The notes under the pieces are model-generated. The model searched no databases. It was not told where the DNA came from and worked only from the letters and a program-made list of their open reading frames with translations. Shown one piece after another: positions 7,292 through 58,264 of a stretch of DNA of 64,000 nt. Source of the DNA: a virus (lineage: Duplodnaviria > Heunggongvirae > Uroviricota > Caudoviricetes); the IMG/VR virus record IMGVR_UViG_2872147552_000001; one strand, given 5' to 3'. Each line of letters starts with the position of its first letter. The first letter of the stretch is position 1. A program made the position numbers and the translations under genes.

Positions 7292-7491
7292 CAAGAAACC
7301 AACCCAACCTAGTTTTTAGTCTCATGGTATGCAACCTTAAGATCTACTTTAAAACAGCTGCACGCCAGACGGTTGCAACATTGTTAAGTGTAACAAATTA
7401 TTGTAGATTACTCAGGCACAGAATAGCGTCTACAACTTAAGAAACGTCCAGAAATAAACAATGTTCCAATCACGTAGAAAGGGAATTAAGA

Positions 7492-9830: not shown

Positions 9831-10352
9831 GTGAGCAATACGACGATCGAGATTTTCTCTGGAGAGAACGATTATGATCTAAACGGTTTTGATTGCGGCG
9901 AAGAGTCACTAAACGCATTTTTGACCAACCACTTAAAAAGACAGCATGAAGGAAAAATTCTTCGCGCTTATGTGCTTTGCACTAAAGAAGAAATACCAAA
10001 GGTATTAGGTTATTACACTTTGTCAGGCAGCTGCTTTGAGAAAGAAACCTTACCTTCAAAGAGTCAGCAAAAGAAAGTGCCTTATCGGAATGTCCCAAGT
10101 ATCACTTTAGGCAGACTGGCTTTGGACAAATCTCTTCAAGGTCAGGGGCTTGGCTCAATGCTTGTAACTCACGCAATGCGTGTTGTGTACAATGCATCTC
10201 TTGCGGTAGGCATTCATGGGCTTTTCGTTGAGGCGTTGAACGATAAAGCCAGGGCGTTTTATAAAAGTTTGGGCTTTATCCAGCTGGTTGGTAACAACGA
10301 TCGTTCTTTGTTCTATCCAACAAAATCTATCGAAAAATTGTTCGAAGAATAA
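9831..10352 (+). CDS. GNAT-family acetyltransferase toxin (AtaT/ItaT/TacT-like)
   Basis: YDLNGFDCGEESLNAFL..., GNAT motif A LQGQGLGSML and motif B AFYKSLGF; 173 aa. Confidence 0.85.
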   Translation: MSNTTIEIFSGENDYDLNGFDCGEESLNAFLTNHLKRQHEGKILRAYVLCTKEEIPKVLGYYTLSGSCFEKETLPSKSQQKKVPYRNVPSITLGRLALDKSLQGQGLGSMLVTHAMRVVYNASLAVGIHGLFVEALNDKARAFYKSLGFIQLVGNNDRSLFYPTKSIEKLFEE

Positions 10353-17877: not shown

Positions 17878-20800
17878 TCACAGACGGCCAATTCTTACTC
17901 GTAGGACGTTGTTATCGTCATAAACGTCAATCCGCTGACCATTTATAACCAATCGCCCATTGCCGCCGCTATTACCGTTGATCTCAAGCGTTCCATTTTT
18001 GCCGAACCGCCATCCAGATCTACCGCTAACAAAATTGGTAGATTGCAGATCGCCTACTTTTGCATTGGTGATTGTGCCATCCTTGATATACGCTCCATTC
18101 ATATAGGCGATACTGTTTTCGATAACAAATGGCGTTGTGATCTTCCCGTTAACAGAGTTGACCAAACCAAACCTGTCCGCCTGAACCAAAAACTGAGATA
18201 GCCCAGTGGTGTCAATACCAAGCGCAATACCGGCAACATACTTCTGCCCTCCGCTCGTTGAAGTCTCCATTTTCAACGTCCACGCGGTTGATACTTTTTT
18301 GTTGGTATCAGCAATAGCTGTTGCCTGCTGTTGAATTGTCGCGGTATTTCCATCCACCTCTGCTTTCAGAGTATCGATTCGCCCACTCAGAGCATTATCT
18401 GCCTGCGTTCTCGCTGTCGTTTCAGTTGTTACCGCCGCGGAAATGTTGGCTGCCGTTTGAGACTCTAAGTTTGTGATTTGAGTCGCCAATGCAGCATCTT
18501 GCTCTGTACGCGTTTTCGTTTCGGTTGCTACAGCCGCTTTAATATCCTCTTTGTATTGAGAGGTCAGCTTGGTGATCTGAGACGACAACGCCGAGTCAGC
18601 ATCAGTTCGAGCCTGCGTTTCAACTGCAACGGCCGCACTAATATCTTTCGCTGTCTGTGCTTTTAAATTTGAAACCTCTTTTGTTAAAGCGGTATCACCA
18701 TCTGCACGAGCCGTTGTTTCTCTGGCAAGAGACGCCTCGAGATCATTAGCTTTTGCTGTAAGAGACGTAATCTGGGTAGACAATGCACTATCGGCATCAG
18801 TCCTTGCTTTTGTCTCTACAGCAACCGCTGCGGCAATATCAGTTCCGGTTTGTGCTCGCAGGCTGTTAATTTCTCGTGAGAGCGCCTGGTCAGCACTTGC
18901 TCTGGCCTCCTGCTCCTGAGTGATGGCAGCGGATATATCACCGTCAACCTTTGACTGAAGCTGGTTTATTTGTTTGGCTAACGCAGAGTCCCCGCTTGCT
19001 CGGGCCTCCTGCTCACTACGTATTGCAGCAGAAATATCATCATCAACCTTTGCCTGAAGTTGGGTGATCTGGCTTGCCAGAGCCGAATCTTCCGTTGCTC
19101 GGGCTTCTTGCTCTTCCTTAATAGCTGCGACGATATCGTTGCTTACTTTCGACTCAAGCTGAGTGATCTGTGTCGTCAGAGCTTCATCGGCAGATGTACG
19201 AGCCTCCTGCTCTGTACTAATCGCCGCGCTGATATCTCCTTCAAACTTAGATTGCAGCTGAGTGACACGCTTTGCTAACGCTTCATCGCCATCTGCACGC
19301 GCGGTGGACTCTTCCAGAATACTGGCCTTAATGTCTTCGCCAATTTCTACGCGAATTTCTTCAACCTTCGTAGCCATTGCAGACATATCATCAGCAAAGG
19401 TTTTCTGTGTTGTTGCGATCTTCGCGTTATTGACCATCTGCTTGTGCTGGTCTTCATCTTGACGAAGAGCCAGGTCAATATTTGTTTTGGCTAACGCCTC
19501 AATGTTCGTAGTCAGTTCTGCACTGGCACGATCGACCTCTGCAACCGTCTTTTTCATTTCTTCAACGGCAGCGGAGCTTTCCTCTACCGTTGACTGCAAC
19601 ACTTCCAGTTGTTTAGCGTTTGCAGCATCGCCTTCAACACGAGCCTCGCTTTCCTTAGCAATAAGAGCCGCCGCTTCATCTCTTGCAGCCTTTATTGCCT
19701 CGACTGTATTAGCGAGAGCTTTATCGTGTTCAGATACGGTGTTTTCGATTTCAACAATTGCAGCATCAGTAGCATCAATTTTTTCAAACGCTTCATTGAC
19801 CTTGTCGATCGTTGCCGAAACCTCACCTTTAAGCTCGGTTTGTGCGTTCTCCAAAGCATCGCTACGCTCGTTGAATTTTATTTCAAAATCCGCGAGGTTA
19901 TCGCTGAACTGCTTATCTAATTCAGCTATATCTTCCTTAACGTCGTTTACCGCCCCCTCCAAAGATTCGACGCTCTGGTTGATATGCTCATTTAACTCGT
20001 CAACTGCTTCTTGAGAGGCTTTGCTGTTGATGTCCTCAAGCAGAGCCTGACCAAGCTCGGAAGATGTAATTTTGCCAGTCAGGAACGACAGTACATCGCG
20101 AGTTGTCGCCTCTGTACCCAAGTTTGAGTTCGGAGGACTTAACATACCTCGCTTGTTCGATGCTCGAACCCAGTAATACCACGTTTCGCTATCCCCAAGA
20201 CCAGCATGTGTAAAGGTGGTGCTTGCAGACTCTGCGATCAGTTTCGCCGTATCCAGATTGTTGGTCTGGGATGCGTAAACATTAATGTGATCAAGGTCTA
20301 CCGAATCTGGATTAACCCAATTCAGTATCACATTACGATAGTCTCCAACGGCCGTTAATGACGTTGGTGCATCCGGCGGTGTCATTGTGCCCAGCACCTG
20401 ATAAACGGTACTGATAATTTCTGTTTTTTTACCGTTGAATGAAACCGCATACAGTTGGAAGTCGTAGCGTCCATTCTCCGCGACATTAACGATTTCGTAT
20501 TGCTCTTCGGTTACACGCGCCGATTGCCAGTTCGATACATTGTTTTCATCAGAACGTCGCCAACTGATCCAATACTCTGGAGATTTCCCTTCCCATGTTG
20601 CAGTCAGTTTTACTGACAGGTTGCCCGGGCTTGAGAGGTAAGTTCCTTCAGTGATTTGCAAATTAGACGGCTTGGAGTAAGTCGGGTCCAATACCGTCGT
20701 ATTCTGCGGAATCAGCGTTGCACCATTGTCGATTGCCTCATATTTAGACGGATTGTTCTCAACAGCGGTGATGTCAAAGCTACCCGGCGTTTCCCCCTGC

Positions 20801-22611
20801 GCGATGTTAACGATGCGAACGCGCATAGGTTCGAGGTCTGGTTCTGTAATAGTCCAGACGCCGTTCAAAACAGGCGTTTCAGCCGAAGACAGGGCTTTTG
20901 AAAACGTAACTTTTGTTATATTTTCGCCAGTTTCAAGAACATCGCGTTCAACGATTTTGCCTTCCTGATTCAGTATTCGAATAAAGCAGCCGCCTTTGGC
21001 TAACGACACAGGCGCATCGAGTGTGACGCTGTTTTTGGTAAACGCCACAATTCGACCTGAGTTACGTTTGCCTGCGCGATATTTGTTCTGAATCAGAACG
21101 GTTTCACCAGGCATCAGAAATGACGCGTCTAAGCCGGCAGTAAATGTAATTACATCCGACTCCATTCTGGCGGTATATAAAAGCCACAAACCAACTCGGT
21201 GAGCCTGCCCTCGGCTTGTACAGCCAAATGCTACGACTTCTGTTTTACGCTCACCATAACGGCGCATTGCGTCCTGATCTTCGACGTACTCGATGTTTTG
21301 CTTATAACCGTCCTCCTTGTTGTTATAGGTTACGAGCGCAACGGATGGGCGATCTTTACGCGCAGAACCTTTATAGGTAAACAATCCATCTTTGACGTTA
21401 GAGTTGGTAAACATCATTACCGGATCTGATGGGCTATCCTGCATGATGTTAACCATCCCACCAGCCCAAAACACCATGCCGCGGAATGCACCGGCAATAT
21501 CCTGAATTAGTCGGTATGCGTCCTGTCGACTGGTGATCTGCGTATTGATTGCAAAGCGTTTCTCTTTGCCACCAAAGCCATCATCGACTTCTTCGTCACA
21601 ATATCGACCAATCTGGTACAACTGGCCAAGGTCAATCATAGATTCCGACACATACTGACCAAGGCCATATCGAGCATTGGTAAGCAAATCAAAGAGAATC
21701 CACGCGGGGTTTGAAGAAGACAACAGCTTAAAAGTGCCATCCCATACACCATCATAAGTGTTGCTGGCCTCGTTGTAGTTTGACGGCACGCGAATTTTTA
21801 ATCCACGTACCAAATACGAACGAGATGGCATGGTGCTACCAAACTGCTCAGAATTAACCTTCAGACCCACCAGCACAGAGTTTGGGTAGTTCATCGGTGT
21901 ATCTACAATCTCACCTATTGAGTCCACCCATGTATCGTTATAGAGATACTGGCTGCTGTTATCATCGGTAATACGGACTACACGAACCTTGTACGCGCGT
22001 CCAGGCTTAGGCAGCTTCAGCTCATAGCTACGGTAATAAACACCTGTCTTCTTTGCTGTTAGCTTAATGCCAACGCTTTTTTCACCTTCTGCGACCACAT
22101 CTACAAATGTTGAGTCGCCATTTGCTATCTGGAACTTGTACTCAACGGTTGTACCGTTCGTGTCACCAGTTTTTTTATCTATGCTTCGCAAAGAAGGAAA
22201 CTTCATGATGACACGAACCCGATCAGCTTCATCGTTATCGATTGAAACCGTTACATAATGTGTTTTTTTTAACTGGATATTGACGGATTTAGGCGTTTCA
22301 ACGAAATCAAAGCCAGACATTGGAGTCTGGTCTTGCGAACCGTCGCGAAAATCCCATGTGATTCCGCTGAAGTTGGAGGAACCGTCTTCATTTACAATCG
22401 GCAGATCGTCGACAAAAATAGATCTTGCGCCATTTACCAAGCCGCCAATTACACCTTCCCCAAGAAGATCGAGGATAGCGGCCATTGCACGAGAATTTAC
22501 GGTATCGTCGGCTTCAACCGGTGTACGGCTAGAGCTTTTGCTGCTTTTTTTACCACCCGCACCTGCAATAAACAGCGGTAACTTTTTCTTCTTGAACTGT
22601 TCCATGTTCAA
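17878..22611 (-). CDS. tail tip / host specificity protein (lambda J-like) with C-terminal tandem coiled-coil repeats
   Basis: 1577 aa; lambda-J-like N-terminus; about 12 tandem ~25-aa repeats (DISAAI..EQEAR..DSALA.QI.QLQ.KV). Confidence 0.8.
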   Translation of the reverse strand: MNMEQFKKKKLPLFIAGAGGKKSSKSSSRTPVEADDTVNSRAMAAILDLLGEGVIGGLVNGARSIFVDDLPIVNEDGSSNFSGITWDFRDGSQDQTPMSGFDFVETPKSVNIQLKKTHYVTVSIDNDEADRVRVIMKFPSLRSIDKKTGDTNGTTVEYKFQIANGDSTFVDVVAEGEKSVGIKLTAKKTGVYYRSYELKLPKPGRAYKVRVVRITDDNSSQYLYNDTWVDSIGEIVDTPMNYPNSVLVGLKVNSEQFGSTMPSRSYLVRGLKIRVPSNYNEASNTYDGVWDGTFKLLSSSNPAWILFDLLTNARYGLGQYVSESMIDLGQLYQIGRYCDEEVDDGFGGKEKRFAINTQITSRQDAYRLIQDIAGAFRGMVFWAGGMVNIMQDSPSDPVMMFTNSNVKDGLFTYKGSARKDRPSVALVTYNNKEDGYKQNIEYVEDQDAMRRYGERKTEVVAFGCTSRGQAHRVGLWLLYTARMESDVITFTAGLDASFLMPGETVLIQNKYRAGKRNSGRIVAFTKNSVTLDAPVSLAKGGCFIRILNQEGKIVERDVLETGENITKVTFSKALSSAETPVLNGVWTITEPDLEPMRVRIVNIAQGETPGSFDITAVENNPSKYEAIDNGATLIPQNTTVLDPTYSKPSNLQITEGTYLSSPGNLSVKLTATWEGKSPEYWISWRRSDENNVSNWQSARVTEEQYEIVNVAENGRYDFQLYAVSFNGKKTEIISTVYQVLGTMTPPDAPTSLTAVGDYRNVILNWVNPDSVDLDHINVYASQTNNLDTAKLIAESASTTFTHAGLGDSETWYYWVRASNKRGMLSPPNSNLGTEATTRDVLSFLTGKITSSELGQALLEDINSKASQEAVDELNEHINQSVESLEGAVNDVKEDIAELDKQFSDNLADFEIKFNERSDALENAQTELKGEVSATIDKVNEAFEKIDATDAAIVEIENTVSEHDKALANTVEAIKAARDEAAALIAKESEARVEGDAANAKQLEVLQSTVEESSAAVEEMKKTVAEVDRASAELTTNIEALAKTNIDLALRQDEDQHKQMVNNAKIATTQKTFADDMSAMATKVEEIRVEIGEDIKASILEESTARADGDEALAKRVTQLQSKFEGDISAAISTEQEARTSADEALTTQITQLESKVSNDIVAAIKEEQEARATEDSALASQITQLQAKVDDDISAAIRSEQEARASGDSALAKQINQLQSKVDGDISAAITQEQEARASADQALSREINSLRAQTGTDIAAAVAVETKARTDADSALSTQITSLTAKANDLEASLARETTARADGDTALTKEVSNLKAQTAKDISAAVAVETQARTDADSALSSQITKLTSQYKEDIKAAVATETKTRTEQDAALATQITNLESQTAANISAAVTTETTARTQADNALSGRIDTLKAEVDGNTATIQQQATAIADTNKKVSTAWTLKMETSTSGGQKYVAGIALGIDTTGLSQFLVQADRFGLVNSVNGKITTPFVIENSIAYMNGAYIKDGTITNAKVGDLQSTNFVSGRSGWRFGKNGTLEINGNSGGNGRLVINGQRIDVYDDNNVLRVRIGRL

Positions 22612-38266: not shown

Positions 38267-39523
38267 CTATCGAGAACCACCAAGAATAACACGGTTTTTG
38301 ACTGGATACCTACGATGTACTGGATAGCCCAATGCGTCTGCACTATGCTCAATGCCACCTGTCTTATCCATATCTCGTGTTCCAGGCTTGTAGATGACTT
38401 TTTCCAGTGAATCAATCAAATGCTTGCACTTCGGATCGATATACAGCCGGATATCTCCAGATGCGGTCATCAGCATTCGGTTAACAGCATTAACACGATC
38501 CGCAATTGGCGGGTGCTTTTTCGAATAATCGACACGTAAGAATCCCTTCTCTTTGAATATGTCGACGTCAGACTCCCCGCGAGCATGTTGGCGATAAGCA
38601 CCTGCCGGATCTGGAAATACCGTTATCTGTGATTTCCAGCGCCAGAAGCGTCTCTCAAGCTCATCACAAACCTCTGCCGTGTTAGAGGAAAAGAGCACCA
38701 ATTCATCAATTGCCCATAGCTCACCATTTGGCTGAGGTTGCAAAATTACTGAAGACATCGGGTCAATGTTGAAGTCCTGCCCTACCCATATAGGCAACCG
38801 AGGGTTGAACTGAAGCGGTTTTACATGCACGTTACGATCGAACGGGTAGTAAACGCGCCCGGACATGTTCTCAAAGCTCGCCAGGTACTCCTGAGCGAAC
38901 GATTTCGGGTCCATATCGTTCTTAGCAGCTTCAATTTCCGCCGTAGGTACAAACGGAGAATCGGCAGTTACAAACTGCCAGCTCTTCCACTGTCCCTTTC
39001 TTTGCAGCTCTACGTTCTGGCCTATAGTCCACAGTTTGTGAAATTCCGAGAAGCCTTTTGGCGTACCAATGATCAGTGCACCGCCGCGTGTCGATGAAAG
39101 AGTAGGTCGTAACACCTTGTACCAGGTGTCAGCCTTCATATCCTGAAATTCATCAAGCACTACAAAATGCAACGCTACGCCGCGCAGAGTGTCAGGCTTA
39201 TCAGCACCTTTGAGGGCGATCTCCGAACCGTTCTTCAACACGATTGTCATCGTGGTGTCGTTCTTTTTCCTAACCCACTTACGAGGCAGAACTTCCTGTA
39301 GATCGTCCCACAAAATCTGGCGAGCCATCTGGTAAGTAGGAGCGACATACCAGACCCTTTGCTTTTTTTCCTTTGCCGCCGCACGAATAATAGTGGAGAT
39401 CGACAACCGGGATTTTCCCCAGCGTCGACCAGCACAAACAACTTTAAATCGATGCGGAGACTGGAAGACTTTCATCTGTCCAGAATGCAGTTGCACAAGA
39501 CTGAGCGAGGACGGGATTGCCAT
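38267..39523 (-). CDS. terminase large subunit
   Basis: Walker A CAGRRWGKS, Walker B VVLDEF, C-terminal nuclease-like domain; overlaps TerS stop. Confidence 0.9.
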   Translation of the reverse strand: MAIPSSLSLVQLHSGQMKVFQSPHRFKVVCAGRRWGKSRLSISTIIRAAAKEKKQRVWYVAPTYQMARQILWDDLQEVLPRKWVRKKNDTTMTIVLKNGSEIALKGADKPDTLRGVALHFVVLDEFQDMKADTWYKVLRPTLSSTRGGALIIGTPKGFSEFHKLWTIGQNVELQRKGQWKSWQFVTADSPFVPTAEIEAAKNDMDPKSFAQEYLASFENMSGRVYYPFDRNVHVKPLQFNPRLPIWVGQDFNIDPMSSVILQPQPNGELWAIDELVLFSSNTAEVCDELERRFWRWKSQITVFPDPAGAYRQHARGESDVDIFKEKGFLRVDYSKKHPPIADRVNAVNRMLMTASGDIRLYIDPKCKHLIDSLEKVIYKPGTRDMDKTGGIEHSADALGYPVHRRYPVKNRVILGGSR

Positions 39524-40155
39524 TATTCGTCCTCCCCTTTACTTCCATCATCTGTCGCATCAAATTCGCTTAGAGCTTCTTCTTCTAACGTCTCAAGCAA
39601 TTCGTCATCGATGATTTCAGGCTCGTCGTCTTCCTGACGTAATTTCGCCACCTGGGAAGGCGTAAGCTCACCAAATACCAGGTTCGGAATTTCTTCCTCG
39701 TCATTTTCCGCATGATCCATGCCCAATGCTTTGGACGAAACTTCAAAGCATTTTGCAAGGGTATTACTGGCTCTCTGTAAGCTCTTGAGAGAATCCTCAA
39801 TCGCCCCTAAAGGCTTACCCTCACGTTTGGCCGTAGTGACTTCGACCATCACCATCTGCCCCAACGCATACGCCCAGCCGTCATAACGTGTACGACGTTC
39901 TTCTATCTTTTCCGCACGGGCTTTAGCGCGAAGCTCTGCGTCAGATTTAAGAGACTCACGAACCATCTTCCCAACAGAGTCCGCGCCTTTCTCTAATCCT
40001 CGCTTTTTGAAATGTCTGGAGAGTGTTTCACGACGAATGCCGTACTCTTCCTCCAGCTTTGAGAGTGTATATTCGCCTGACGTCCATTTGGCTTCAGCTT
40101 CGGCCCACTCCGCTGGTGTCAGGCGAGTTTTTACCTCGTCTTTTTCGACCGTCAT
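39523..40155 (-). CDS. terminase small subunit
   Basis: 210 aa, N-terminal HTH-like region, acidic C-terminus; directly upstream of TerL. Confidence 0.7.
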   Translation of the reverse strand: MTVEKDEVKTRLTPAEWAEAEAKWTSGEYTLSKLEEEYGIRRETLSRHFKKRGLEKGADSVGKMVRESLKSDAELRAKARAEKIEERRTRYDGWAYALGQMVMVEVTTAKREGKPLGAIEDSLKSLQRASNTLAKCFEVSSKALGMDHAENDEEEIPNLVFGELTPSQVAKLRQEDDEPEIIDDELLETLEEEALSEFDATDDGSKGEDE

Positions 40156-40271
40156 AGATCCCTCTAAAACACACAGAGCGCGTCCATGCGCTCTAAAACA
40201 ACTTGTTTACTGAATCTGCTAACCAACTTGTTTTCTGGGGTGTTTAATTAGGTCTGGGCATGTCTTATTAA

Positions 40272-40329
40272 GCCTGCTTCCGTATATATTTAATAAGTTA
40301 CTTATTATTTATATATACAGAAGCAGGTC
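40272..40329. repeat. 58-bp AT-rich imperfect palindrome, copy 2, flanked by GGTCTGGG / CCCAGACC inverted repeat
   Basis: gcctgcttccgtatatatttaataagttacttattatttatatatacagaagcaggtc; upstream of terminase operon; two GAAAACAA.TTGTTTTC-type sites lie at about 40190-40240. Confidence 0.7.
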
Positions 40330-40351
40330 TTTAAATAAGCTCCCAGACCGG

Positions 40352-40618
40352 TTACATCACCAGTAACTTCGCTTTGGCTCGACCTAAAGTGGTTAACCCA
40401 AGAGTTCGGCGGTGATAGCGATTGTCACTGCGTTGGCGCGTATGCCCTTTCTCCACCAGCCCCTTTTTTATCAGAGCGCGAATTGAGAACTGGATACTTT
40501 GCTTGGTTGTCTTGTACGGCAAAACTTCAAGCAATTCGTCCAGATCAAGTAAATGACCTCGCTCATAACCGAGGTTGAGCGTTTTGATGATGTCCTTTTG
40601 TTTATCGGTTAACGTCAT
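40352..40618 (-). CDS. small winged-helix DNA-binding protein (putative regulator)
   Basis: 88 aa with LEVLPYKTTKQSIQFSIRALIKKGLVEK helix-turn-helix-like segment. Confidence 0.45.
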   Translation of the reverse strand: MTLTDKQKDIIKTLNLGYERGHLLDLDELLEVLPYKTTKQSIQFSIRALIKKGLVEKGHTRQRSDNRYHRRTLGLTTLGRAKAKLLVM

Positions 40619-40627
40619 GGCAAATCC

Positions 40628-41527
40628 TTATGCCGGTAAAGCAATTTCTAACGGTTTATCCAAAGGTTGTTTGTCGAATGCCAGCAGTGGCAGCGTGTCA
40701 GGCAGCCGACGACCAAAGTCAGGGTTTCGGTACACACCATACAACGGAGACGTAAAGCTCAGGTTGTGAATGTCCTTGAGCAGCTTCACAATGCTGGCCT
40801 CGTCCACCAGACTGTCGGCAATGTCCTGAATCGTCGTGCCACGATTCCGCCCAGCTTTTGCCAGGGAACTGTTCTTGTGGTAGTCCGCTACCAGATCACG
40901 CAGTGCACGGCGACGACGAGACTCGCTCATTGCGAACAACTCTTTGACGATCGCCTCGTTATCACCCGGGTCGGAACGGAAATGGCGCTGGAATACACGC
41001 AGTGCACTTTCATAGCTCTTCGGTCGCTCAGGGCGGATGAACTTAAACCCTGCTTTCATGGCGAAGGGATTGTATTTGCTCATCGAGGACTGGATCTCAA
41101 TGATTGGCCGGTCGTGCATCCTGCTAACCAGGTTAATCATTCGATAGGAGACGCCGACACCGCGGTACTGAGTGTCCACAACGGAACGGCTGATCACCGC
41201 AAAGTTGTTGTTCACGTACCGCCCCCAATACTGGTTGGCCACGGTGGTATTGGTGGTTGGCTTCAGCTTAGGAAACATGCGATGGCGAGGCGCCAGCAGC
41301 AGTTTCGGGTAAGCCATAACCACGACGCCCACCAGCCGGTCGTCCAGTTCGCAGCGATAATACGTTGGCGCAAACGGCTTACCATCCGTCTTGTAGTGCA
41401 GCGACTTCAGCGCGTGCCAGTCTTCAACCGTGCCTTTGGTAACGGTCATACGCTCCAGAAAGTCCAGATGACGCGGGAACTCTTCCGGGCGGTAGCGTTT
41501 GATGATGATGCCTGTCATGTCGATCAC
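40628..41527 (-). CDS. GNAT-fold acetyltransferase domain fused to helical C-terminal domain
   Basis: GNAT motif A QYRGVGVSYRMI and motif B NPFAMKAGFKFI in N-terminal ~170 aa; 299 aa. Confidence 0.5.
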   Translation of the reverse strand: MIDMTGIIIKRYRPEEFPRHLDFLERMTVTKGTVEDWHALKSLHYKTDGKPFAPTYYRCELDDRLVGVVVMAYPKLLLAPRHRMFPKLKPTTNTTVANQYWGRYVNNNFAVISRSVVDTQYRGVGVSYRMINLVSRMHDRPIIEIQSSMSKYNPFAMKAGFKFIRPERPKSYESALRVFQRHFRSDPGDNEAIVKELFAMSESRRRRALRDLVADYHKNSSLAKAGRNRGTTIQDIADSLVDEASIVKLLKDIHNLSFTSPLYGVYRNPDFGRRLPDTLPLLAFDKQPLDKPLEIALPA

Positions 41528-41778
41528 CTACGCTCGATATTGGCATTGATGAAGTCCAGGCGAAGCGATTCCATCGCCCCAACCATGACGTATGGACGCC
41601 CACCGTTATGCCAGCAATCCAGCACACTGCCGTCGTTGTTGATCATCAGCAGTGCCAGGCTCTGGCTTTTGCCTTCTCTGGCGTACTGGAGTGCTTCTTC
41701 CAGCAGGCGGATGACTTCAACGTTGTTGTTGTCAGCCTCTTTCGATGGCTTCAGCTCTACGATCTTCAAATCAGGCAT
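41524..41778 (-). CDS. hypothetical small protein
   Basis: 84-aa ORF translationally coupled between ABC ATPase and GNAT genes. Confidence 0.45.
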   Translation of the reverse strand: MPDLKIVELKPSKEADNNNVEVIRLLEEALQYAREGKSQSLALLMINNDGSVLDCWHNGGRPYVMVGAMESLRLDFINANIERR

Positions 41779-42409
41779 ATTCCACCTTCACGCGTTCTTT
41801 GTAGTGCTTGGTGATCTGCATATCCGGGCGCAGCGCGTTCTTCAGGTCTTCGTGAGTCGTCGCCACCATTACCGTCGCACCAACCTTTCGAGCGGCACGC
41901 TGGAGGTTAGATGCCACAACCTGAGCGGTTACACGGTCTAGAACAGCCCCGAACTCGTCAGCAGCCCACACTTTAGCGCCTGACTCAATCAGTTTGGCAA
42001 TCTTGAGACGATATTTCTGGCCGTCTGACATTTCAGAAGGCTTGCGAACAAACAGATATGCATCGTTCAGACCAGCCATAGATAACAACCCAAGCGCATC
42101 ACTGGTCGTTTTGCCCAACTGATCGATGACGTTAACCTCATTATCGAAGGTAAAATCATCGATGGAGGCTACAGACAGCCCTTCATCCTTCATCTGTCGT
42201 TGCAACTCGCGCAGCACAACGGATTTGCCGGATCCGGATTGGCCGGTGATGTACACCACATCGCCCTGCTTCACTTCCAGCTCCAGATTGTCGTAAAGCG
42301 TCCACTCTTTTTCGTCCAGACCAAGCCCGAACGACTCAGCGATTTCCAACGTGCGCGTGGTTTTATTTACGCGTGTCTGAAACGATACGTTGATGATGTA
42401 TTTGCTCAT
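41771..42409 (-). CDS. compact ABC-type ATPase (nucleotide-binding domain only)
   Basis: Walker A GQSGSGKS, ABC signature SDGQKYRL, Walker B VWAADEF, H-loop TTHE; 212 aa, no membrane domain. Confidence 0.75.
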   Translation of the reverse strand: MSKYIINVSFQTRVNKTTRTLEIAESFGLGLDEKEWTLYDNLELEVKQGDVVYITGQSGSGKSVVLRELQRQMKDEGLSVASIDDFTFDNEVNVIDQLGKTTSDALGLLSMAGLNDAYLFVRKPSEMSDGQKYRLKIAKLIESGAKVWAADEFGAVLDRVTAQVVASNLQRAARKVGATVMVATTHEDLKNALRPDMQITKHYKERVKVEYA

Positions 42410-43074
42410 GCAGCCATCTCCCCGGAAGAGATCTTCTCCGCATATGCCACAAATGCGTCTACCCCGCTTTCTCCTGTCATTTCTTCCATGTGGGCAAGCA
42501 AATCACCAACAACAATGGCAGAGCCAGCAGGGAGCGTTTTAAAGCCCAATACGTCGACAACACGTACTTCTTCCGCTGCAACTTCACGACTGATCTCGGT
42601 GTGTTCATCCTTCTGTCGTTTAGTTTCTTCGCCAAGATCGATAACTAGCGAGTCGGTGTCCATTTCTTCTGTCATACTGCCAACGAGAACATTCAACTCA
42701 CGCTCTTCAAAGCCGAAAACCTCGATATCGTCCAGAACAAGCGACTCAAGCTCTTTCTGTAGCTTAATTGCATCGTAATCAATGCTGGCTAGTCGGTTAT
42801 CTTCAAGGCGCTTCGCACGAACCTCGTCATCACTCAGATCATCGCGAACAATAACCGGCACGCGCTCAAGTCCAGCAAAAATTGCAGCCTCACGGCGGCC
42901 GTGGCCAGTAATAATTACGTCGTTCTTATCGACCGTAATTGGCTGGTCAAATCCTCGCTTTTTAATGGCTGCGGCCAGATCTCGGATCTGCTGTTCATCA
43001 TGCTTTTTGGCATTCATCTCATAGGGAATAAGATCTGCCGGGTCGCGATATACGATTTCAAACTTTTTGGTCAT
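42406..43074 (-). CDS. ParB/Srx-like nuclease-domain protein 2
   Basis: LIPYEMNAKKH...ITVDKNDVIITGHGRREAAIFAGLERVPVIV ParB N-domain signature; start placed at Met12 overlapping upstream stop (track to 43107). Confidence 0.65.
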   Translation of the reverse strand: MTKKFEIVYRDPADLIPYEMNAKKHDEQQIRDLAAAIKKRGFDQPITVDKNDVIITGHGRREAAIFAGLERVPVIVRDDLSDDEVRAKRLEDNRLASIDYDAIKLQKELESLVLDDIEVFGFEERELNVLVGSMTEEMDTDSLVIDLGEETKRQKDEHTEISREVAAEEVRVVDVLGFKTLPAGSAIVVGDLLAHMEEMTGESGVDAFVAYAEKISSGEMAA

Positions 43075-43772
43075 TACATACGCTCCTTGTAGTAGTCGAC
43101 CAGCCACACCAGAGCCTCACCAGCGTTCTCCATTTCATTACCGGTGTTAATAGCCTGCTCTTTGATGATGTTTTTTATGGTTTCTGCAACACGATCTGAC
43201 GCATCGAAAGTTACTTTGAAGCGCATGGTCTGATGTTCCGCCCCCACACGTTCGGTTTTCTCTCGTTTGTCGGTATCGACAGGCTCATCACTACCACGAG
43301 ACAACGCCTCCAGTGCTTCAAGGTCGATTGCCGCCTCTTTTGCTAAAACCATCGAGATTTCGTCGTCATACGGGGCGATTTCAGACAGTTGATAGTCAAG
43401 TTCTGACTGAATTTCTTCAATGAAGCGTTGCAATGCGATTTGGTCGTCTTCACCGTATCGCTCGTTGTCCACCAGTGACATCTGTTTAGCTACGACATCG
43501 CTAATTTTGCCCACAGAAAGCACCGGAACCGTTGAAATTCCTTGCTCAATAGCAGCACGCCAGCGATGTTCGCCGCCGAGGATTTCAAAAAATCCATCTT
43601 CAAGTTCACGAGCCAAAATTGGCTTAAAAAAGCCCAATTTTTCGATAGAACCTTTCAGTTTTTCAAAATTCTGCGCACCAACCGAATTGGTGTTCCAGGT
43701 ATTCGGGCGAAGGTTGGCAACATCAACCTGCAAAATCGTGATTTTTACATCCATTTTATTGCTACAATCCAC
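43074..43772 (-). CDS. ParB/Srx-like nuclease-domain protein 1
   Basis: LRPNTWNTN...ILGGEHRWRAAIEQGISTVPVLSV ParB N-domain signature; 232 aa; first gene after the divergent promoter. Confidence 0.65.
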   Translation of the reverse strand: MDCSNKMDVKITILQVDVANLRPNTWNTNSVGAQNFEKLKGSIEKLGFFKPILARELEDGFFEILGGEHRWRAAIEQGISTVPVLSVGKISDVVAKQMSLVDNERYGEDDQIALQRFIEEIQSELDYQLSEIAPYDDEISMVLAKEAAIDLEALEALSRGSDEPVDTDKREKTERVGAEHQTMRFKVTFDASDRVAETIKNIIKEQAINTGNEMENAGEALVWLVDYYKERM

Positions 43773-43797
43773 TAAGTAATCACTTACTTATTATAAT
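43773..43797 (+). promoter_or_regulatory. divergent promoter/operator region (TAAGTA-NN-CACTTA operator overlapping TATAAT -10)
   Basis: taagtaatcacttacttattataat between divergently transcribed ParB-like and helicase genes. Confidence 0.5.
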
Positions 43798-43836
43798 AGC
43801 CAAATAACATACAAAAGGCACTAAGGAAAGAGGTTT

Positions 43837-45396
43837 ATGACTGTTCGGATTGTATCTAACGCAGTAAATGCGCTTATTTCTGGCGCAGATGACAAGGTAA
43901 AGCAACTGGTGCAGCAAATGTTGAGCTACGAAGTCGAGACTGGCGACTGGAAGGGCACAAGCACGATGTTCAACTGGAGTAAAAACTCGTTCCCTGCTGG
44001 CTTTGCCAAGCCTGTAGCGGCGAACTTGAACAAGGCGGGCATCAAATGTGTTCATATCCGCAAAGACAAAGCCCCGGCGCTTGGTAAACCAAATCCTGCG
44101 GTTAACCCATTCCCATACAATCCTGATTATGCGTATCAGGATCAGACTGTGGAAACACTGGTTCGAGAGGGAATGATGATTGCGCAGATCGCTACTGGTG
44201 GCGGGAAATCTAACGTTGCCTGCAAAGCAGCTGCACGTATCGGTCGAATGACATTATTTTTAACAACCCGCTCTGTTCTGATGTTTCAAATGGCCGAAAA
44301 CTTCCAGAGATCCATCGACTACCGCGCCGAAAATGGTGAACCGTGGTTAAAAGACCAAAAGGTTGGAGTCATTGGCTCGGGTGAGTTCCAGGTATCACGA
44401 CATATCAACGTCGCTACAGTTCAAACTCTTGCAAGTTTCCTCGAAGAACCACCACGCGATGCAACACCAGATAAGAAAAGCTACCACCTCAAACGTCGGG
44501 AGTTGGTGAAACGCTTCCTTTCAAGTGTCTCTCTTCTTATTCTGGAAGAGGCGCATGAGTCTTCAGGCTCAAATTTCTATGACATCGCCAGATTATGTGT
44601 GAACGCAGACTATCGTCTGGCGCTTACAGCCACGCCGTTCATGAAGGATTCGACGGAAGCCAACATGCGCCTGATGGCGGTGGCCGGGCGAATTGAAATT
44701 AAAGTCACAGAAAAGTACCTGATTGATCGAGGCATTCTGGCAAAGCCGTACTTCCTTTATCATAAAGTTGCCTACAAGCCAGACGAGGCCAGAATCAAGG
44801 CCGAACTTGCCAACAAACACCTCAATTTTAGAGTTGGTATGAGCACCGCCTACCAAAAGGCTTATCAGTTGGGGATCGTGTATAATTTGGGACGTAACGA
44901 GGCCATAGTGCGCGAGGCATTGCTTTATAAGCAACATTCACTCAACTGCATGACTCTGGTTCGTCTTAAACGCCACGGGCAAATCCTGATGGAGATGATG
45001 AAGGAGTCAGGTCTTAAAGTTGATTTCATCTATGGGGAATCTAACCAGACGACAAGGCAAGCAAAGCTGAATAGTTTAGCGTCTGGTGAAATAGATGTTT
45101 TAATAGGCTCGACTATTCTGGATGTTGGTGTTGATGTGCCAAGCGTTGGTGCGGTCATTCTTGCTGGTGGTGGGAAAGCAGAAGTTGAAATGAGACAGCG
45201 TGTCGGTCGTGGCTTACGAGCCAAAAAAAATCAGGCAAACGTGTGTTTTATCACTGATTTCATTGACATTAGCAACAAATACCTGTTGTCTCACTCTTAT
45301 GAGCGAAAACACATCATCGACACCACACCTGGCTTTGCAGAAGGTGTATTGCCTATTGATGGAGCATTCGATTTTGGAGTTCTGAAACGAGATTAG
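43837..45396 (+). CDS. SF2 helicase (DEAD/DEAH-box, ResIII-like)
   Basis: Motif I ATGGGKS, motif II LEEAHE, motif III TATP, motif VI QRVGRGLR; 519 aa. Confidence 0.8.
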   Translation: MTVRIVSNAVNALISGADDKVKQLVQQMLSYEVETGDWKGTSTMFNWSKNSFPAGFAKPVAANLNKAGIKCVHIRKDKAPALGKPNPAVNPFPYNPDYAYQDQTVETLVREGMMIAQIATGGGKSNVACKAAARIGRMTLFLTTRSVLMFQMAENFQRSIDYRAENGEPWLKDQKVGVIGSGEFQVSRHINVATVQTLASFLEEPPRDATPDKKSYHLKRRELVKRFLSSVSLLILEEAHESSGSNFYDIARLCVNADYRLALTATPFMKDSTEANMRLMAVAGRIEIKVTEKYLIDRGILAKPYFLYHKVAYKPDEARIKAELANKHLNFRVGMSTAYQKAYQLGIVYNLGRNEAIVREALLYKQHSLNCMTLVRLKRHGQILMEMMKESGLKVDFIYGESNQTTRQAKLNSLASGEIDVLIGSTILDVGVDVPSVGAVILAGGGKAEVEMRQRVGRGLRAKKNQANVCFITDFIDISNKYLLSHSYERKHIIDTTPGFAEGVLPIDGAFDFGVLKRD

Positions 45397-45745: not shown

Positions 45746-46168
45746 ATGAAATACTCGCTTCTCCCTCTACTAACGTTACCAGTGTTGATGCTTACCGCGT
45801 GCCAATCACGCCCAATATCAATCCATGACGCCAAACCAGCACCGCAGGCCAAAGTGTTCAAGTATCAAAGCGCAGCGCCAGCTACGTTGGTGGTAATGAG
45901 AGACACAGGTTTTGTAGGAGCTGGATGTGATGCTTCCATTTTCATCAACGGCGAAACTGTCGCAAAACTGGCTACAGGCGAAAAAGCGACTTTCCATTTA
46001 AATGCCGGAGAATTAATTGTGGGTGCATCTCTTGAAGGTGCAGGTTTATGTGCTCTAAACCCCGCTCGTCAAGAGCGAGAAACGACTCTGAAGAATGGAG
46101 ACACAAAAGCATTCAGGGTGTTCACCAGCAATTCTGGTGACATCGACATTCTGCCAACAACTCTGTGA
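45746..46168 (+). CDS. lipoprotein
   Basis: Start placed at MKYSLLPLLTLPVLMLTACQS (lipobox LTAC); track ORF from 45704. Confidence 0.6.
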   Translation: MKYSLLPLLTLPVLMLTACQSRPISIHDAKPAPQAKVFKYQSAAPATLVVMRDTGFVGAGCDASIFINGETVAKLATGEKATFHLNAGELIVGASLEGAGLCALNPARQERETTLKNGDTKAFRVFTSNSGDIDILPTTL

Positions 46169-46172
46169 TGAC

Positions 46173-46697
46173 ATGACAACCAAAGATATTACCTACGGTA
46201 TCCAAGCTGAACTCTGGCCGCGAGATTACACTAACGTTGAAAAACTACTGATGTTCTGGCGCAGAGAACAAATTCCTGTAAGGGTCACTCTCGAAGATGG
46301 CCAGGCGTTTTGCATGTACGTTTATGGCCTCATGCCATCTCGTAACAAAGTTGACCTTTGCCCAGCCCCTTTTGACAAAGAAAATCGTATAAGGCTCCCA
46401 CTTGAACGCATTAGTACAATTGAATCAGGTGTGGTTGACAGTATCGCTCACGATTTCAAAGGTCGACTAACAGTTCACCCTGATTATGTCGATAATCGGC
46501 CATCACGCCGCGATTTTTTTGCAATTTGCAACCAAGCCTACAAAGCAAACAAATCTATAAGGGTGTACATGGCGGATGGCCGTGAAATTGAGGGGGTGTC
46601 AGCAGGCGCAGATGCTTGTCAGGTTACACTACGTGTCGAGAACGGTAGAAAAATAGTTGTTTTGTTCGATTGGGTTGAACGAATTTTGCCTTTTTGA
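46173..46697 (+). CDS. hypothetical protein with internal duplicated beta-rich motif
   Basis: Start placed at first Met after upstream stop (track from 46095); repeated IPVRVTLEDG / IRVYMADG segments. Confidence 0.5.
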   Translation: MTTKDITYGIQAELWPRDYTNVEKLLMFWRREQIPVRVTLEDGQAFCMYVYGLMPSRNKVDLCPAPFDKENRIRLPLERISTIESGVVDSIAHDFKGRLTVHPDYVDNRPSRRDFFAICNQAYKANKSIRVYMADGREIEGVSAGADACQVTLRVENGRKIVVLFDWVERILPF

Positions 46698-54972: not shown

Positions 54973-57006
54973 TTACTTAACCTGGTGGCCAGGTTTAGCA
55001 CCAGCATCCGGGCTTAACAGGAAGATATCTTTCCCGCCGGGGCCAGCAGCCATCACCATGCCTTCAGAGATACCGAAGCGCATTTTACGTGGTGCCAGGT
55101 TAGCCACCATAATGGTGTGACGACCAATCAGTGCCTGTGGATCTGGATAAGCGGAACGGATGCCTGAGAAGACATTACGCTTTTCACCACCGAGATCCAG
55201 CGTCAGGCGAAGCAGTTTGTCAGAACCTTCTACAAACTCTGCGTTTTCAATCAGCGCCACGCGCAGGTCAACTTTGGCGAAGTCGTCAAAGGTGATAGTT
55301 TCCTGAATCGGGTCGTCAGCCAGTGGGCCAGTTACCGGTGCGGCTGTGGCTTTCACTTCTTCTTTGGATGCTTCCACCAGTGCTTCAACCTGCTTCATAT
55401 CGATGCGGTTATACAGTGCCTTGAACGGATTTACTTTATGGCCCAGCAGCGGTTGCTGGATACCATCCCAGGTCAGTTCTGTATTCAGGAATGCTTCTGC
55501 ACGTTCAGTCAGTTTCGGCAGTACCGGCTTCAGGTACGTCATCAGCACGCGGAACAGGTTAATGCCCATAGAGCAAATCGCCTGCAGATCGGCATCGCGA
55601 CCTTCCTGCTTCGCCACCACCCACGGAGCCTGTTCATCGACATAGCGGTTAGCCAGGTCAGCCAATGCCATGATTTCACGGATAGCTTTACCAAATTCGC
55701 GGCTTTCCCATGCTTCGCCAATCACTTCAGCGGCATCAGTAAAGGTTTTGTACAGTTGCGGGTCAGCCAGTTCGCTTGCCAGCACGCCGTCAAAACGCTT
55801 GTTTATAAAGCCTGCATTACGGGAGGCCAGGTTAACCACTTTGTTCACGATATCGGCATTCACGCGCTGAACGAAATCCTCCAGGTTGAGATCGATATCA
55901 TCAATGCGCGAAGAGAGTTTCGCAGTGTAGTAGTAACGCAGGCTGTCGGCGTCAAAATGATTCAGCCAGGTGCTGGCTTTAATAAAGGTGCCGCGAGACT
56001 TGGACATCTTCGCGCCGTTCACCGTCACATAGCCGTGAACAAACAGGTTGGTCGGCTTGCGGAAGTTGCTGCCTTCCAGCATGGCAGGCCAGAACAGGCT
56101 GTGGAAGTAAACAATATCTTTACCGATGAAGTGGTACAGCTCGGCGGTGGAGTCTTTCTTCCAGTATTCATCGAAGCTGGTGGTATCGCCGCGCTTGTCG
56201 CACAGATTCTTGAAGGAACCCATGTAGCCAATCGGCGCGTCCAGCCAGACGTAGAAATATTTGCCCGGCGCGTCCGGAATTTCAAAACCGAAGTAAGGCG
56301 CATCGCGGGAGATATCCCACTGTTGCAGGCCGGATTCAAACCATTCCTGCATTTTGTTCGCCACCTGCTCCTGCAACGCGCCGCTGCGGGTCCATGCCTG
56401 CAACATTTCGCTGAAAGAAGGCAGATCAAAGAAGAAGTGTTCGGAATCACGCATTACCGGGGTAGCGCCAGAAACCACCGATTTCGGCTCGATCAATTCA
56501 GTCGGGCTATATGTTGCGCCGCAGACTTCACAGTTATCGCCGTATTGATCTGGCGCTTTACATTTCGGGCAGGTGCCTTTTACAAAACGATCCGGCAGGA
56601 ACATGCCTTTTTCCGGGTCGTACAACTGAGAGATAGTGCGGTTTTTAATAAAACCGTTCTCTTTCAGGCGAGTATAGATAAGCTCAGACAACTGACGGTT
56701 CTCTTCGCTGTGCGTCGAGTGATAGTTGTCATAGCTGATGTTAAAGCCTGCGAAATCAGTCTGGTGTTCCTGACTCATTTCGCCAATCATCTGCTCCGGT
56801 GTGATACCAAGCTGCTGCGCTTTCAGCATGATCGGCGTACCGTGGGCATCGTCGGCACAGATGAAATTAACCTCGTGGCCGCGCATTCGCTGGTAACGAA
56901 CCCAGACATCAGCCTGGATGTGCTCCAGCATATGGCCGAGGTGGATTGAGCCGTTAGCGTACGGCAGCGCGCACGTCACCAGAATTTTCTTCGCGACTTG
57001 GGTCAT
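54973..57006 (-). CDS. metG: methionine--tRNA ligase
   Basis: 677-aa product starting [37 protein letters not shown] and KMSKS motifs, Zn knuckle CPKC...CEVC; recalled from memory as near-identical to E. coli MetG; track ORF has a 43-codon spurious N-terminal extension. Confidence 0.97.
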
Positions 57007-57163
57007 AGTAGGCATTACTTCTTTGTAGTGAAAAGGGGCTTGATAGTAACAAAATGGCCTTATGTCTGCCATGTGATAACAGCATTTCTCATAAATGATT
57101 AAATGTCGTAGCTGGAGTACACTACAAGGCGACAATTGCGCAAATTAAAATAAAGGAGACGGG

Positions 57164-58264
57164 ATGAGCGAGTCCAAATCGCCGGATGCCCTGAGAGCAA
57201 TGGTAGCCGGTACGCTGGCTAATTTTCAGCACCCAACCCTGAAACACAACCTGACTACGCTTAAAGCGTTACACCATGTTGCGTTGATGGATGACACACT
57301 GCATGTCGAACTAATCATGCCTTTCGTGTGGAATAAGCCTTTTGAAGACCTGAAAGAGCAATGTAGTGGTGATCTGCTCCGTATCACTGGCGCAAAGGCT
57401 ATTGACTGGAAGCTGTCGTACAACATTGCCACGCTTAAGCGCGTCAAAAACCAACCAGGCATTAATGGCGTTAAGAACATTATCGCCGTCAGCTCAGGCA
57501 AGGGCGGCGTGGGTAAATCCTCCACGGCGGTAAACCTGGCACTGGCGTTGGCTGCTGAAGGTGCGAAAGTTGGTATTTTGGATGCCGATATCTATGGTCC
57601 ATCAATTCCAACCATGCTGGGTGCGGAAAACCAACGTCCAACCTCACCTGACGGTACTCACATGGCACCTATCATGTCTCATGGCCTGGCAACCAACTCT
57701 ATTGGTTATCTGGTCACCGACGACAATGCAATGGTGTGGCGTGGACCGATGGCCAGCAAGGCGCTGATGCAGATGTTGCAGGAAACTCTATGGCCTGATC
57801 TGGACTATCTCGTTCTCGATATGCCGCCGGGCACTGGTGATATTCAGTTGACGCTGGCGCAGAACATTCCTGTAACTGGTGCGGTTGTGGTAACTACGCC
57901 GCAAGACATCGCGCTGATCGATGCGAAGAAAGGCATTGTGATGTTCGAAAAAGTCGAAGTGCCGGTACTGGGTATCGTCGAAAACATGAGTGTGCATATT
58001 TGCAGTAACTGCGGTCATCACGAGCCAATTTTTGGCACCGGTGGCGCACAGAAACTGGCCGAGAAATACAACACGCAGTTGTTAGGCCAAATGCCACTTC
58101 ATATCTCTCTTCGTGAAGATCTGGATAACGGAACACCAACCGTTATTAGTCGTCCAGATAGCGAATTTACGGCTATTTATCGTGACCTCGCAGATCGCGT
58201 TGCCGCCCAAATGTATTGGCAAGGTGAAGTAATACCTGGCGAAATCGCATTCCGCGCAGTGTGA
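57164..58264 (+). CDS. apbC: Fe-S cluster carrier ATPase Mrp/ApbC
   Basis: P-loop SGKGGVGKSST, CxxC motif ICSNCGHH; 366 aa; divergent from metG as in the E. coli chromosome. Confidence 0.95.
   Translation: MSESKSPDALRAMVAGTLANFQHPTLKHNLTTLKALHHVALMDDTLHVELIMPFVWNKPFEDLKEQCSGDLLRITGAKAIDWKLSYNIATLKRVKNQPGINGVKNIIAVSSGKGGVGKSSTAVNLALALAAEGAKVGILDADIYGPSIPTMLGAENQRPTSPDGTHMAPIMSHGLATNSIGYLVTDDNAMVWRGPMASKALMQMLQETLWPDLDYLVLDMPPGTGDIQLTLAQNIPVTGAVVVTTPQDIALIDAKKGIVMFEKVEVPVLGIVENMSVHICSNCGHHEPIFGTGGAQKLAEKYNTQLLGQMPLHISLREDLDNGTPTVISRPDSEFTAIYRDLADRVAAQMYWQGEVIPGEIAFRAV

Follow-up and report, generated by a model that had tools for sequence, protein, structure and literature searches.

Among the enzymes of the GNAT fold, Mom of phage Mu modifies adenine in DNA, and TmcA/NAT10, an ATPase-coupled GNAT, makes N4-acetylcytidine in RNA. 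The COG2401-type family (MK0520-like; PHROGs 293 and 886) joins an ABC-type ATPase and a GNAT-like domain in one polypeptide and has no known function, so that membership in it names an enzyme and does not explain it; we found no paper on what these ABC–GNAT proteins do. For ParB-like proteins, a short phage member is required as activator by a thymine dioxygenase (5mYOX) on double-stranded DNA; the 5mYOX loci co-occur with ParB (27%) and terminase (19%), and the ParB-like partner has a nucleotide-binding domain at its N-terminus and a second domain at its C-terminus, with no obvious DNA-binding domain (PMC13229309). Here we describe a locus which compares in part with each of these systems, at positions 40352-45396 of a 64,000-nucleotide stretch of viral DNA (IMG/VR record IMGVR_UViG_2872147552_000001, Caudoviricetes), called the window below. 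The locus belongs to an Escherichia coli SSU5-type phage-plasmid and forms one of its lytic-cycle operons, which encodes on the minus strand two ParB proteins (ParB1 and ParB2), an ABC ATPase, an 84-amino acid protein, a 299-amino acid GNAT-fold protein and a small probable winged-helix protein, upstream of the terminase genes and opposite a superfamily 2 (SF2) helicase.

A previous reading of this DNA, the original prediction, considered the cluster as uncharacterised and could attach it to no operon with a name. This view stands: no model of Pfam, NCBIfam or PADLOC names the cluster as a system, and searches of the full-text literature found nothing on its function, the ParB–5mYOX pairs being the only precedent that turned up. 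The 299-amino acid protein has the GNAT fold in common with Mom but no specific sequence similarity to it, the resemblance being no better than to ordinary GNATs, and Mom has neither an ATPase nor a ParB partner. With TmcA/NAT10 the likeness is one of concept, that of an NTPase module and a GNAT modifying a nucleic-acid base, whereas the architecture of this enzyme (RecD-like helicase ATPase, GNAT and tRNA-binding domain in one protein) is not that of the cluster. Phage fusions of ParB with a DNA methyltransferase match ParB2 over their N-terminal 150 residues or so, and both these fusions and stand-alone genes for a 'ParB-like nuclease domain' appear to share with the operon a terminase-proximal position; the fusions differ by their methyltransferase domain, which ParB2 does not have, its neighbouring module being an acyltransferase with an ATPase. 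The 5mYOX/ParB pairs likewise place a short ParB-like protein beside an enzyme and near the terminase, a likeness of architecture and position, but they combine a dioxygenase with one ParB, against an ABC–GNAT with two ParB paralogues here (PMC13229309).

The ABC ATPase and the GNAT-fold protein

The soluble ABC-type ATPase (212 amino acids; 41771-42409, minus strand; ABC_tran 5e-13) has a complete set of motifs, with Walker A GQSGSGKS, signature MSDGQ, Walker B VWAADE and H-loop TTHEDL, and the cluster contains no membrane partner gene for it. Compared with its counterparts in SSU5 and Klebsiella, the protein is 97-98.6% identical, with a ratio of nonsynonymous to synonymous divergence (dN/dS, or ω) of 0.01-0.02. 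The GNAT-fold acyltransferase-like protein (299 amino acids; 40628-41527, minus strand) presents a GNAT core at about residues 25-165, followed by a helical insert (about 172-258) and two closing strands. Motifs A (R122-G-V-G-V-S) and B (NPFAMKAGF) are conserved and the GNAT fold is confirmed. The profile of the family had no match in the PDB, and a Foldseek search against BFVD returned generic GNATs only, with template modelling (TM) scores of 0.3-0.4.

The relation between the two proteins became apparent from a profile of the 299-amino acid family, which found 971 proteins among 1.84 billion representative proteins. Many of these matches are 440-500 amino acids long, and in most of the long ones the GNAT-like part starts around residue 200; ABC_tran was present ahead of it in all ten longer matches scanned with Pfam. 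Aligned end to end with the ABC domains of two fusions, the ABC protein of the window shows identities of 46% and 49%. In the fused family the Walker A, the signature, the Walker B with its catalytic glutamate and the H-loop are invariant, the same GNAT residues are kept, and the GNAT-like domain is recovered at E-values down to about 1e-29. Because fused homologues exist and the identity of the ABC part covers its full length, the ABC ATPase and the 299-amino acid GNAT are the two halves of one ABC–GNAT enzyme of COG2401 type, and by their motifs both halves are catalytically intact. The original prediction listed an ABC ATPase and a GNAT-fold fusion separately; they are better described as the split version of a single family, which forms one polypeptide in many other viruses and comes here from two genes, with the split point at the insertion site of a small gene. 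The COG2401 name, 'ABC-type ATPase fused to a predicted acetyltransferase domain', is already given to the 299-amino acid protein by JGI and in the record of phage Cyrano.

The small gene in question (84 amino acids; 41524-41778, minus strand; phrog_796) is an inserted passenger cassette outside the conserved module. It is absent from Cyrano, from PhiR41_1 and from one of the two CMS-2020a records (CP054387), in which the ABC and GNAT genes abut, and also from the related locus L085; in L085 and Cyrano the two genes overlap directly. In phages nickie (Pseudomonas) and RHEph10 (Rhizobium) and in locus L084, its slot is occupied by one to three unrelated genes, and distant homologues are found inside the head-tail modules of Klebsiella prophages. 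Among E. coli, Salmonella and Klebsiella elements the 84-amino acid gene is 96.5-98% identical at the nucleotide level. Since its synonymous divergence (dS) is 0.08-0.14, versus more than 1 in the ParB, terminase, winged-helix and portal genes and intermediate values in the flanking ABC and GNAT genes, the cassette seems to lie at the centre of a recent horizontal sweep or recombination tract. The cluster, which had been read as a unit of six genes, thus includes one recently spread insertion that is missing in Cyrano and swapped in relatives.

Neighbours of the ABC–GNAT genes

Fused ABC–GNAT genes were found in more than 557 IMG/VR contigs, and the neighbourhood counts given here refer to the best 80 loci. 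The TerL family is present at 64 of these viral loci, and in 44 of the 80 it lies directly upstream on the same strand. ParB occurs in none of the 80 archaeal-type viral loci, and for this reason it would be a recurrent, non-obligatory partner of ABC–GNAT. The association with replication genes takes several forms. PolB and ABC–GNAT form a single open reading frame (ORF) of 1260 or 1310 amino acids (P0248, L079, L080, L005) in two contigs; as these carriers are only 45% identical mutually, the fusion is maintained, and its neighbours resemble, in a by-eye reading, primase-helicase, RecA and Mre11/Rad50. At L051 an intein-containing PolB (4336-7980) precedes ABC–GNAT, at L060 a PolA follows it, and one ABC–GNAT homologue (P0224) has an intein inside its ABC domain.

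Species-representative genomes were also scanned for relatives of ABC–GNAT. In Bathyarchaeota (L090, L091) and Gemmata (L095) the gene follows TerL; in Thaumarchaeota (L093) it is followed by a ParB1-type protein and then by TerL. In Sedimentisphaerales (L094, L097) separate ABC and GNAT genes precede a ParB1-type protein, and in Planctomycetaceae (L099) ABC and GNAT precede TerL. Among these genomes ABC–GNAT occurs, in L094 together with the ParB1-type gene, at the terminase-proximal edge of apparently integrated prophages that border host-like genes. On the viral contigs (L004-L083), 21 of 80 end within the ABC–GNAT ORF and 48 of 80 end at most 1.5 kb downstream; hypervariability of the region, a physical terminus of the genome or the assembly itself could be the cause. 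At L004 (IMGVR_UViG_644736351_000004, a viral region of an isolate genome) an integrase flanks the fused gene, and a 290-amino acid protein encoded after it (3645-4517) resembles by eye the amidoligase type.

Closer to the window, tblastn found homologues of the 299-amino acid protein, at about 41% identity, in 105-122-kb siphophages of Rhizobium, Pseudomonas, Stenotrophomonas and Xanthomonas. The gene order in nickie and RHEph10 is a divergent helicase, then ParB, ParB, ABC, variable small genes, a GNAT-like gene, a small gene, a DNA-binding protein, TerL and portal, and the same order recurs in an Ectothiorhodospira contig, a JGI metagenome contig and Chitinibacter tainanensis, at about 40-45% identity. 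Given that this layout is kept in relatives from Pseudomonas, Rhizobium, Ectothiorhodospira and Chitinibacter, the operon is core phage equipment of the SSU5-type lineage and not an accessory island. The combination of genes is not unique to this element and belongs to the syntenic core of an entire phage lineage.

The two genes at the borders of the operon follow this lineage in different ways. The helicase (519 amino acids; 43837-45396, plus strand; ResIII/DEAD/Helicase_C in Pfam) is XPB/Rad25- and UvsW-like, its best PDB matches being XPBII (1.7e-12) and UvsW (2e-8), and its divergent position is kept in nickie, RHEph10, L084, L085 and L096. This helicase is absent alongside the ABC–GNAT genes of other lineages at the loci examined. 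As the linkage is confined to the SSU5-type lineage, membership of the helicase in the module is unproven and it may be a mere neighbour. The last gene of the operon (88 amino acids; 40352-40618, minus strand; phrog_900 2e-45) has weak winged helix-turn-helix matches, to LexA_DNA_bind (0.07), Sta1/Lrs14 (0.003) and the C-terminus of PADLOC CARF3 (4.5e-5). It has counterparts at the same position in nickie, L084 and L085 (BLASTP 1e-11 to 5e-7), with weak pairwise similarity in RHEph10 and L096, and it is a positional orthologue throughout the lineage.

ParB1 (232 amino acids; 43074-43772, minus strand; ParB_N 3e-13, phrog_723 2e-79) begins with a ParB/Srx N-domain with the motif GGEHRWRAA; a helical middle part follows and leads through an acidic linker to a C-terminal domain, itself conserved and some 60 residues long (THxxxRFKV…TNAGDAL). 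It aligns to the structures of Spo0J, ParB and Noc, covering residues 23-171 of Spo0J (1vz0), and GGEHRWRAA falls on the GERRxRAA motif (GERRYRAA in Spo0J); the alignment to Spo0J extends to residue 160 with low confidence. An AlphaFold2 (AF2) model, based on a shallow alignment of homologues 85-88% identical, is confident only at residues 1-97. The distant ParB1-type proteins from Thaumarchaeota and Sedimentisphaerales align with ParB1 over its full length and have in common with it N21, N23, R49, G61, H63, R64, D86, N97 and G101. No confident helix-turn-helix (HTH) domain was found in ParB1 by the Pfam scan or in the AF2 model. The C-terminal domains of the two ParB proteins had no match among PDB or Pfam profiles and no confident model; a ribbon-helix-helix at the C-terminus of ParB1, which we considered, received no support from these profiles.

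ParB2 (233 amino acids; 42406-43107, minus strand; ParB_N 1.5e-8, phrog_930 1e-112) is a paralogue of ParB1, 33% identical in the N-domain and with the motif GHGRREAA. It matches phrog_498 'DNA methyltransferase' (5e-32) at profile positions 29-179 of 633 and the PADLOC model MTase_II (PDLC03229; 2.7e-17) at positions 15-149 of 436. A methyltransferase domain is absent from ParB2 (222-233 amino acids), since its matches reach no further than profile positions 149-179 and none is to a methyltransferase model of Pfam. By tblastn the ParB2 module is present in 288 phage records, many of which annotate it as a DNA methylase and many of which carry it within their first few hundred bases. By our reading, this location at record ends would place the ParB2-type genes beside a terminase. 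A search for related loci with the ParB2 alignment returned close SSU5-type loci only.

Possible roles of the enzyme and its ParB partners

Because ABC–GNAT adjoins packaging and DNA-polymerase genes in viruses of both bacteria and archaea, the enzyme most likely acts on viral DNA and does not serve plasmid partition or host defence. The reading we favour, with a probability of about 0.35, is that an enzyme dependent on ATP and acyl-CoA works on the phage DNA before packaging, with the help of ParB and most likely by covalent modification. According to this scenario, ABC–GNAT would work on viral DNA between replication and packaging, and the two ParB/Srx-fold proteins would bind or clamp double-stranded phage DNA and recruit or activate the enzyme, as the phage ParB-like activator does for thymine dioxygenase. 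ATP binding and hydrolysis by an ABC dimer would drive engagement of the substrate, the GNAT domain would take an acyl group from acyl-CoA and attach it to a base, as Mom of phage Mu does by means of the same fold, and the DNA would be marked ahead of packaging. The small winged-helix protein may serve as a lineage-specific regulator or specificity factor. Both the DNA substrate and the role given to ParB are inferred, with support from three precedents, namely the 5mYOX activator, the ParB–methyltransferase fusions and Mom. Taken more broadly, ABC–GNAT could be the catalytic core of an unrecognised ATP-dependent DNA-acylation pathway of bacterial and archaeal tailed viruses, in which bases receive N-acyl groups from acyl-CoA. 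It would be tied to replication where it is fused to PolB or to packaging where it adjoins the terminase, and loaded or activated on double-stranded DNA by ParB in the SSU5 lineage; we propose this extension tentatively and consider it doubtful. The evidence goes in the direction of two alternatives listed with the original prediction, a 'DNA-modification module' and a 'packaging-linked' system.

Several observations weigh against action on DNA. No modified base has been reported in phages that carry the module, protein and small-molecule acetyltransferases match the GNAT as well as or better than Mom does, and most fused ABC–GNAT loci are without ParB. DNA binding by ParB1 and ParB2 is assumed, their C-terminal domain being neither modelled nor matched. 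The GNAT is unusually basic, but the net charge of its core, +9 to +17 across 50 homologues, was obtained without a control set, which weakens any argument from charge. Moreover, adjacency to TerL and polymerase fits equally an enzyme working on DNA-bound proteins or on the motors themselves. This last point leads to the main rival, a protein acetyltransferase tethered by ParB which would clear or tune DNA-bound proteins (HU, H-NS, Alba, histones) or acetylate terminase, polymerase or virion proteins, letting the replication and packaging motors advance along the DNA. It fits the same gene neighbourhoods; we nevertheless think it unlikely, as the fold matches are generic, a strongly basic core is odd for an enzyme with basic DNA-binding proteins as its substrates, co-variation with ABC–GNAT is seen for no candidate substrate gene, and an acetyltransferase of this kind driven by an ABC ATPase has no precedent. 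Another possibility is an accessory to packaging, in which the ParB/Srx proteins are site-specific nucleases or pac/cos-recognition factors that ready ends or nicks and the ABC protein is a helper motor. The TerS-like and TerL genes come right after the operon, beyond a structured, repeat-rich gap, ABC–GNAT adjoins TerL in many lineages, and ParB2-type proteins, often annotated 'ParB-like nuclease', would lie at genome ends next to terminases in many phages. However, this explanation leaves aside the conserved acyl-CoA motifs and the PolB fusion maintained in replication modules, most loci with ABC–GNAT and TerL are without ParB, and the nuclease activity of this ParB subfamily is an annotation only, which makes it distinctly improbable.

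A regulatory role in the manner of KorB, with ParB1, ParB2 and the winged-helix protein as global regulators on scattered palindromes and ABC–GNAT as unrelated operon cargo, would account for two palindrome families that are over-represented in the window: TAAGTA-N6-TACTTA, found 7 times with at most one mismatch versus 0.11 expected, and AAACAAnTTGTTTTC, with 26 strand matches versus 1.2 expected. One palindrome sits at the operon's own promoter, as autoregulation would have it, and ParB1 retains a GxxRxxA-type motif within the ParB/Srx N-terminal fold that it has in common with ParB proteins of type I ParABS and KorB type. Unlike these proteins, the cluster has no adjacent ParA and no confidently detected HTH domain; in addition, relatives keep only the promoter-like half, TATRATAAGTMA, and not the palindrome, and ParB1-type proteins accompany ABC–GNAT in unrelated archaeal and planctomycete contigs. 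On these grounds we give regulation little credence. Acetylation of RNA, for example of tRNA cytidine in the manner of TmcA, would follow the same logic of an ATPase-coupled GNAT, and nickie has tRNA-Met and tRNA-Asn genes beside its helicase while the element in the window carries metG; we find it barely credible.

An accessory anti-phage defence, an anti-defence other than DNA modification or a second partition system is very improbable in turn. ParB domains, ABC ATPases and SF2 helicases do recur in Dnd, Pbe, BREX and MADS, and the original prediction had mentioned defence, but the scan of the cluster proteins with PADLOC-DB v2 matched no system as a set. The matches were generic and at the domain level only (the N-terminus of MTase_II, mad3 at 1.8e-13, mad8, PbeA at 7e-23 and PtuA), with none for the 84- and 299-amino acid proteins, and the helicase scored far under the cut-off against PbeA and dnd_restrict_1 (59 versus 600 bits). 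Of the Dnd/Pbe set, no cysteine desulfurase, PAPS-reductase or DndE-like domain was found in the seven proteins, and scans with hidden Markov models (HMM) detected in the cluster no TET/JBP Fe(II)/2OG dioxygenase and no methyltransferase domain. We therefore rejected the reading as a defence system. Nor does the cluster lie in a variable hotspot, being fixed and syntenic throughout the lineage, with purifying selection on it as strong as on TerL. As for partition, the original prediction had already judged the cluster unlikely to be the main system because of a separate ParA/ParG pair. We concur and could place a ParA-like gene at 8567-9235 (phrog_164 5e-51), 33 kb from the cluster, which itself has no ParA gene; furthermore, ABC–GNAT, with or without ParB, occurs at the edge of apparently integrated prophages, in which partition is irrelevant since such prophages need none.

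The sequences as such are not new: the genes are in databases by hundreds and the ABC–GNAT family already has its COG name. We found no paper stating that the two genes form one enzyme, none on how this enzyme is linked, in bacterial as well as archaeal viruses, with terminase, polymerase and ParB, and none excluding partition and defence for the cluster. Phage-plasmids of the SSU5 type are frequent in Escherichia, Klebsiella, Salmonella, Yersinia and Enterobacter, and few of their genes are as conserved as those of this operon, whose annotation stops at 'ParB', 'ABC transporter' and 'hypothetical'. A vague cluster has now become a testable hypothesis, that of one split enzyme with ties to terminase, polymerase and ParB and no match to partition or defence systems, and there is a substantial chance that it hides new DNA chemistry. 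If DNA acylation were true, it would be a new chemistry in phage DNA modification and a second case in which proteins of the ParB fold activate an enzyme; such acylation would bear on restriction escape and on the sequencing behaviour of the element DNA, and hundreds of enterobacterial phage-plasmids would be packaging chemically marked DNA, so far unnoticed. Were DNA-bound proteins acetylated instead, this would be a new viral way to clear chromatin before the motors.

Gene map, repeated motifs and other genes of the element

An ORF scan of the window recovered all seven ORFs of the original prediction and reproduced its map exactly. Its domain assignments also held for the two ParB_N domains, ABC_tran, the GNAT fold and the SF2 helicase, while the winged-helix match is weak yet consistent. 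Adjacent genes of the operon overlap by 4-8 nucleotides or are spaced by 9, and they are therefore translationally coupled; an intergenic gap of 64 bp separates ParB1 from the helicase. According to the annotation of phage Cyrano and of NCBI, the likely true starts are internal ATGs for ParB1 (43754), ParB2 (43074) and the GNAT (41518). E. coli phage-plasmids and phages Cyrano and CMS-2020a match the region at 97-98.6% identity, Salmonella phage SSU5 at 85% and Klebsiella relatives at 80-81%; PLSDB contains 782 plasmids that carry it, from Klebsiella, Escherichia, Enterobacter, Yersinia, Salmonella and others. Compared with SSU5 and a Klebsiella relative, dN/dS is 0.01-0.075 for all genes with an estimable dS, and hence the seven ORFs are real genes under purifying selection. 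In the same comparison the constraint on the ABC and GNAT proteins equals that on TerL (96-98.6% amino acid identity, ω of 0.01-0.03), and the ParB proteins are less constrained (86-90% identity).

Downstream of the operon, and after a gap of 196 bp (40156-40351), come a TerS-like DNA-binding protein (210 amino acids; 39523-40155, minus strand), the terminase large subunit TerL (418 amino acids; 38267-39523, minus strand; Terminase_6N and Terminase_6C) and, on the same strand, the portal gene. The TerS-like gene ends on the base with which the TerL start codon begins. The 210-amino acid protein had been called the terminase small subunit; it matched no terminase HMM and no Pfam model, its sole match being phrog_867 'DNA binding domain' (5e-100), and it is TerS-like by position alone.

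The operon shares a promoter-like motif with other lytic-cycle operons. Upstream of ParB1, on the minus strand (43773-43797), a TATAAT-like hexamer (about 43795-43790) is followed by the palindrome TAAGTA-N6-TACTTA (43773-43790). The copies of this palindrome, at positions 346, 2824, 3699, 7133, 17829, 36745 and 43773, all seven lie just upstream of minus-strand gene starts, and the genes behind them include DnaB, primase and ligase as well as scaffold/capsid and tail-fibre genes; since replication genes are among them, we rejected the reading of the palindrome as a mark of late genes and relate it to lytic-cycle promoters in general. The motif probably serves as a promoter or operator specific to the phage lytic cycle, and relatives keep its promoter-like half at the same site before ParB1. 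A divergent promoter had been placed at 43773-43836; a sigma-70 scan of this interval found no promoter, and what is present is the significantly repeated promoter-like motif.

The second palindrome, AAACAAnTTGTTTTC, occurs at 6355, at 9271, at 40194-40235 and at about 14 sites between 49566 and 63099, being concentrated at 49.5-63 kb; the extra copies lie before the ParA-like gene, before DnaB and, twice, before the TerS-like gene. These last two copies belong to the 196-bp gap, which on the minus strand also contains a 63-nucleotide hairpin element (40273-40335) and a terminator-like hairpin (40174-40195). The hairpin element is directly 3' of the winged-helix gene, its loop contains AATAAGTAACTTATT, and an inverted copy with 86% complementarity is found 33 kb away, at 7228-7290.

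Other genes of the element concern the host or stand apart from the operon. A 173-amino acid acetyltransferase (9831-10352, plus strand; phrog_1758 3e-52), encoded near the ParA-like gene, is unrelated to the 299-amino acid GNAT. A full-length methionyl-tRNA synthetase gene, metG (54973-57135, minus strand), is divergent from apbC/mrp, coding for an iron-sulfur carrier (57164-58264, plus strand), an arrangement also found on the E. coli chromosome; this cargo is common to about 200 E. coli-type plasmids at 95-99.8% identity, and the Pfam label 'ParA' on the 366-amino acid apbC/mrp protein is misleading. A 200-amino acid protein (46095-46697, plus strand) matches Flag1_repress, the FljA-like repressor of phase-1 flagellin, at 2.5e-84 and constitutes a host-behaviour gene carried on a phage-plasmid. 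Finally, an ORF of 1577 amino acids (17878-22611) contains at 18865-19260 four tandem repeats of 99 nucleotides (33 codons) that are 62-72% identical.

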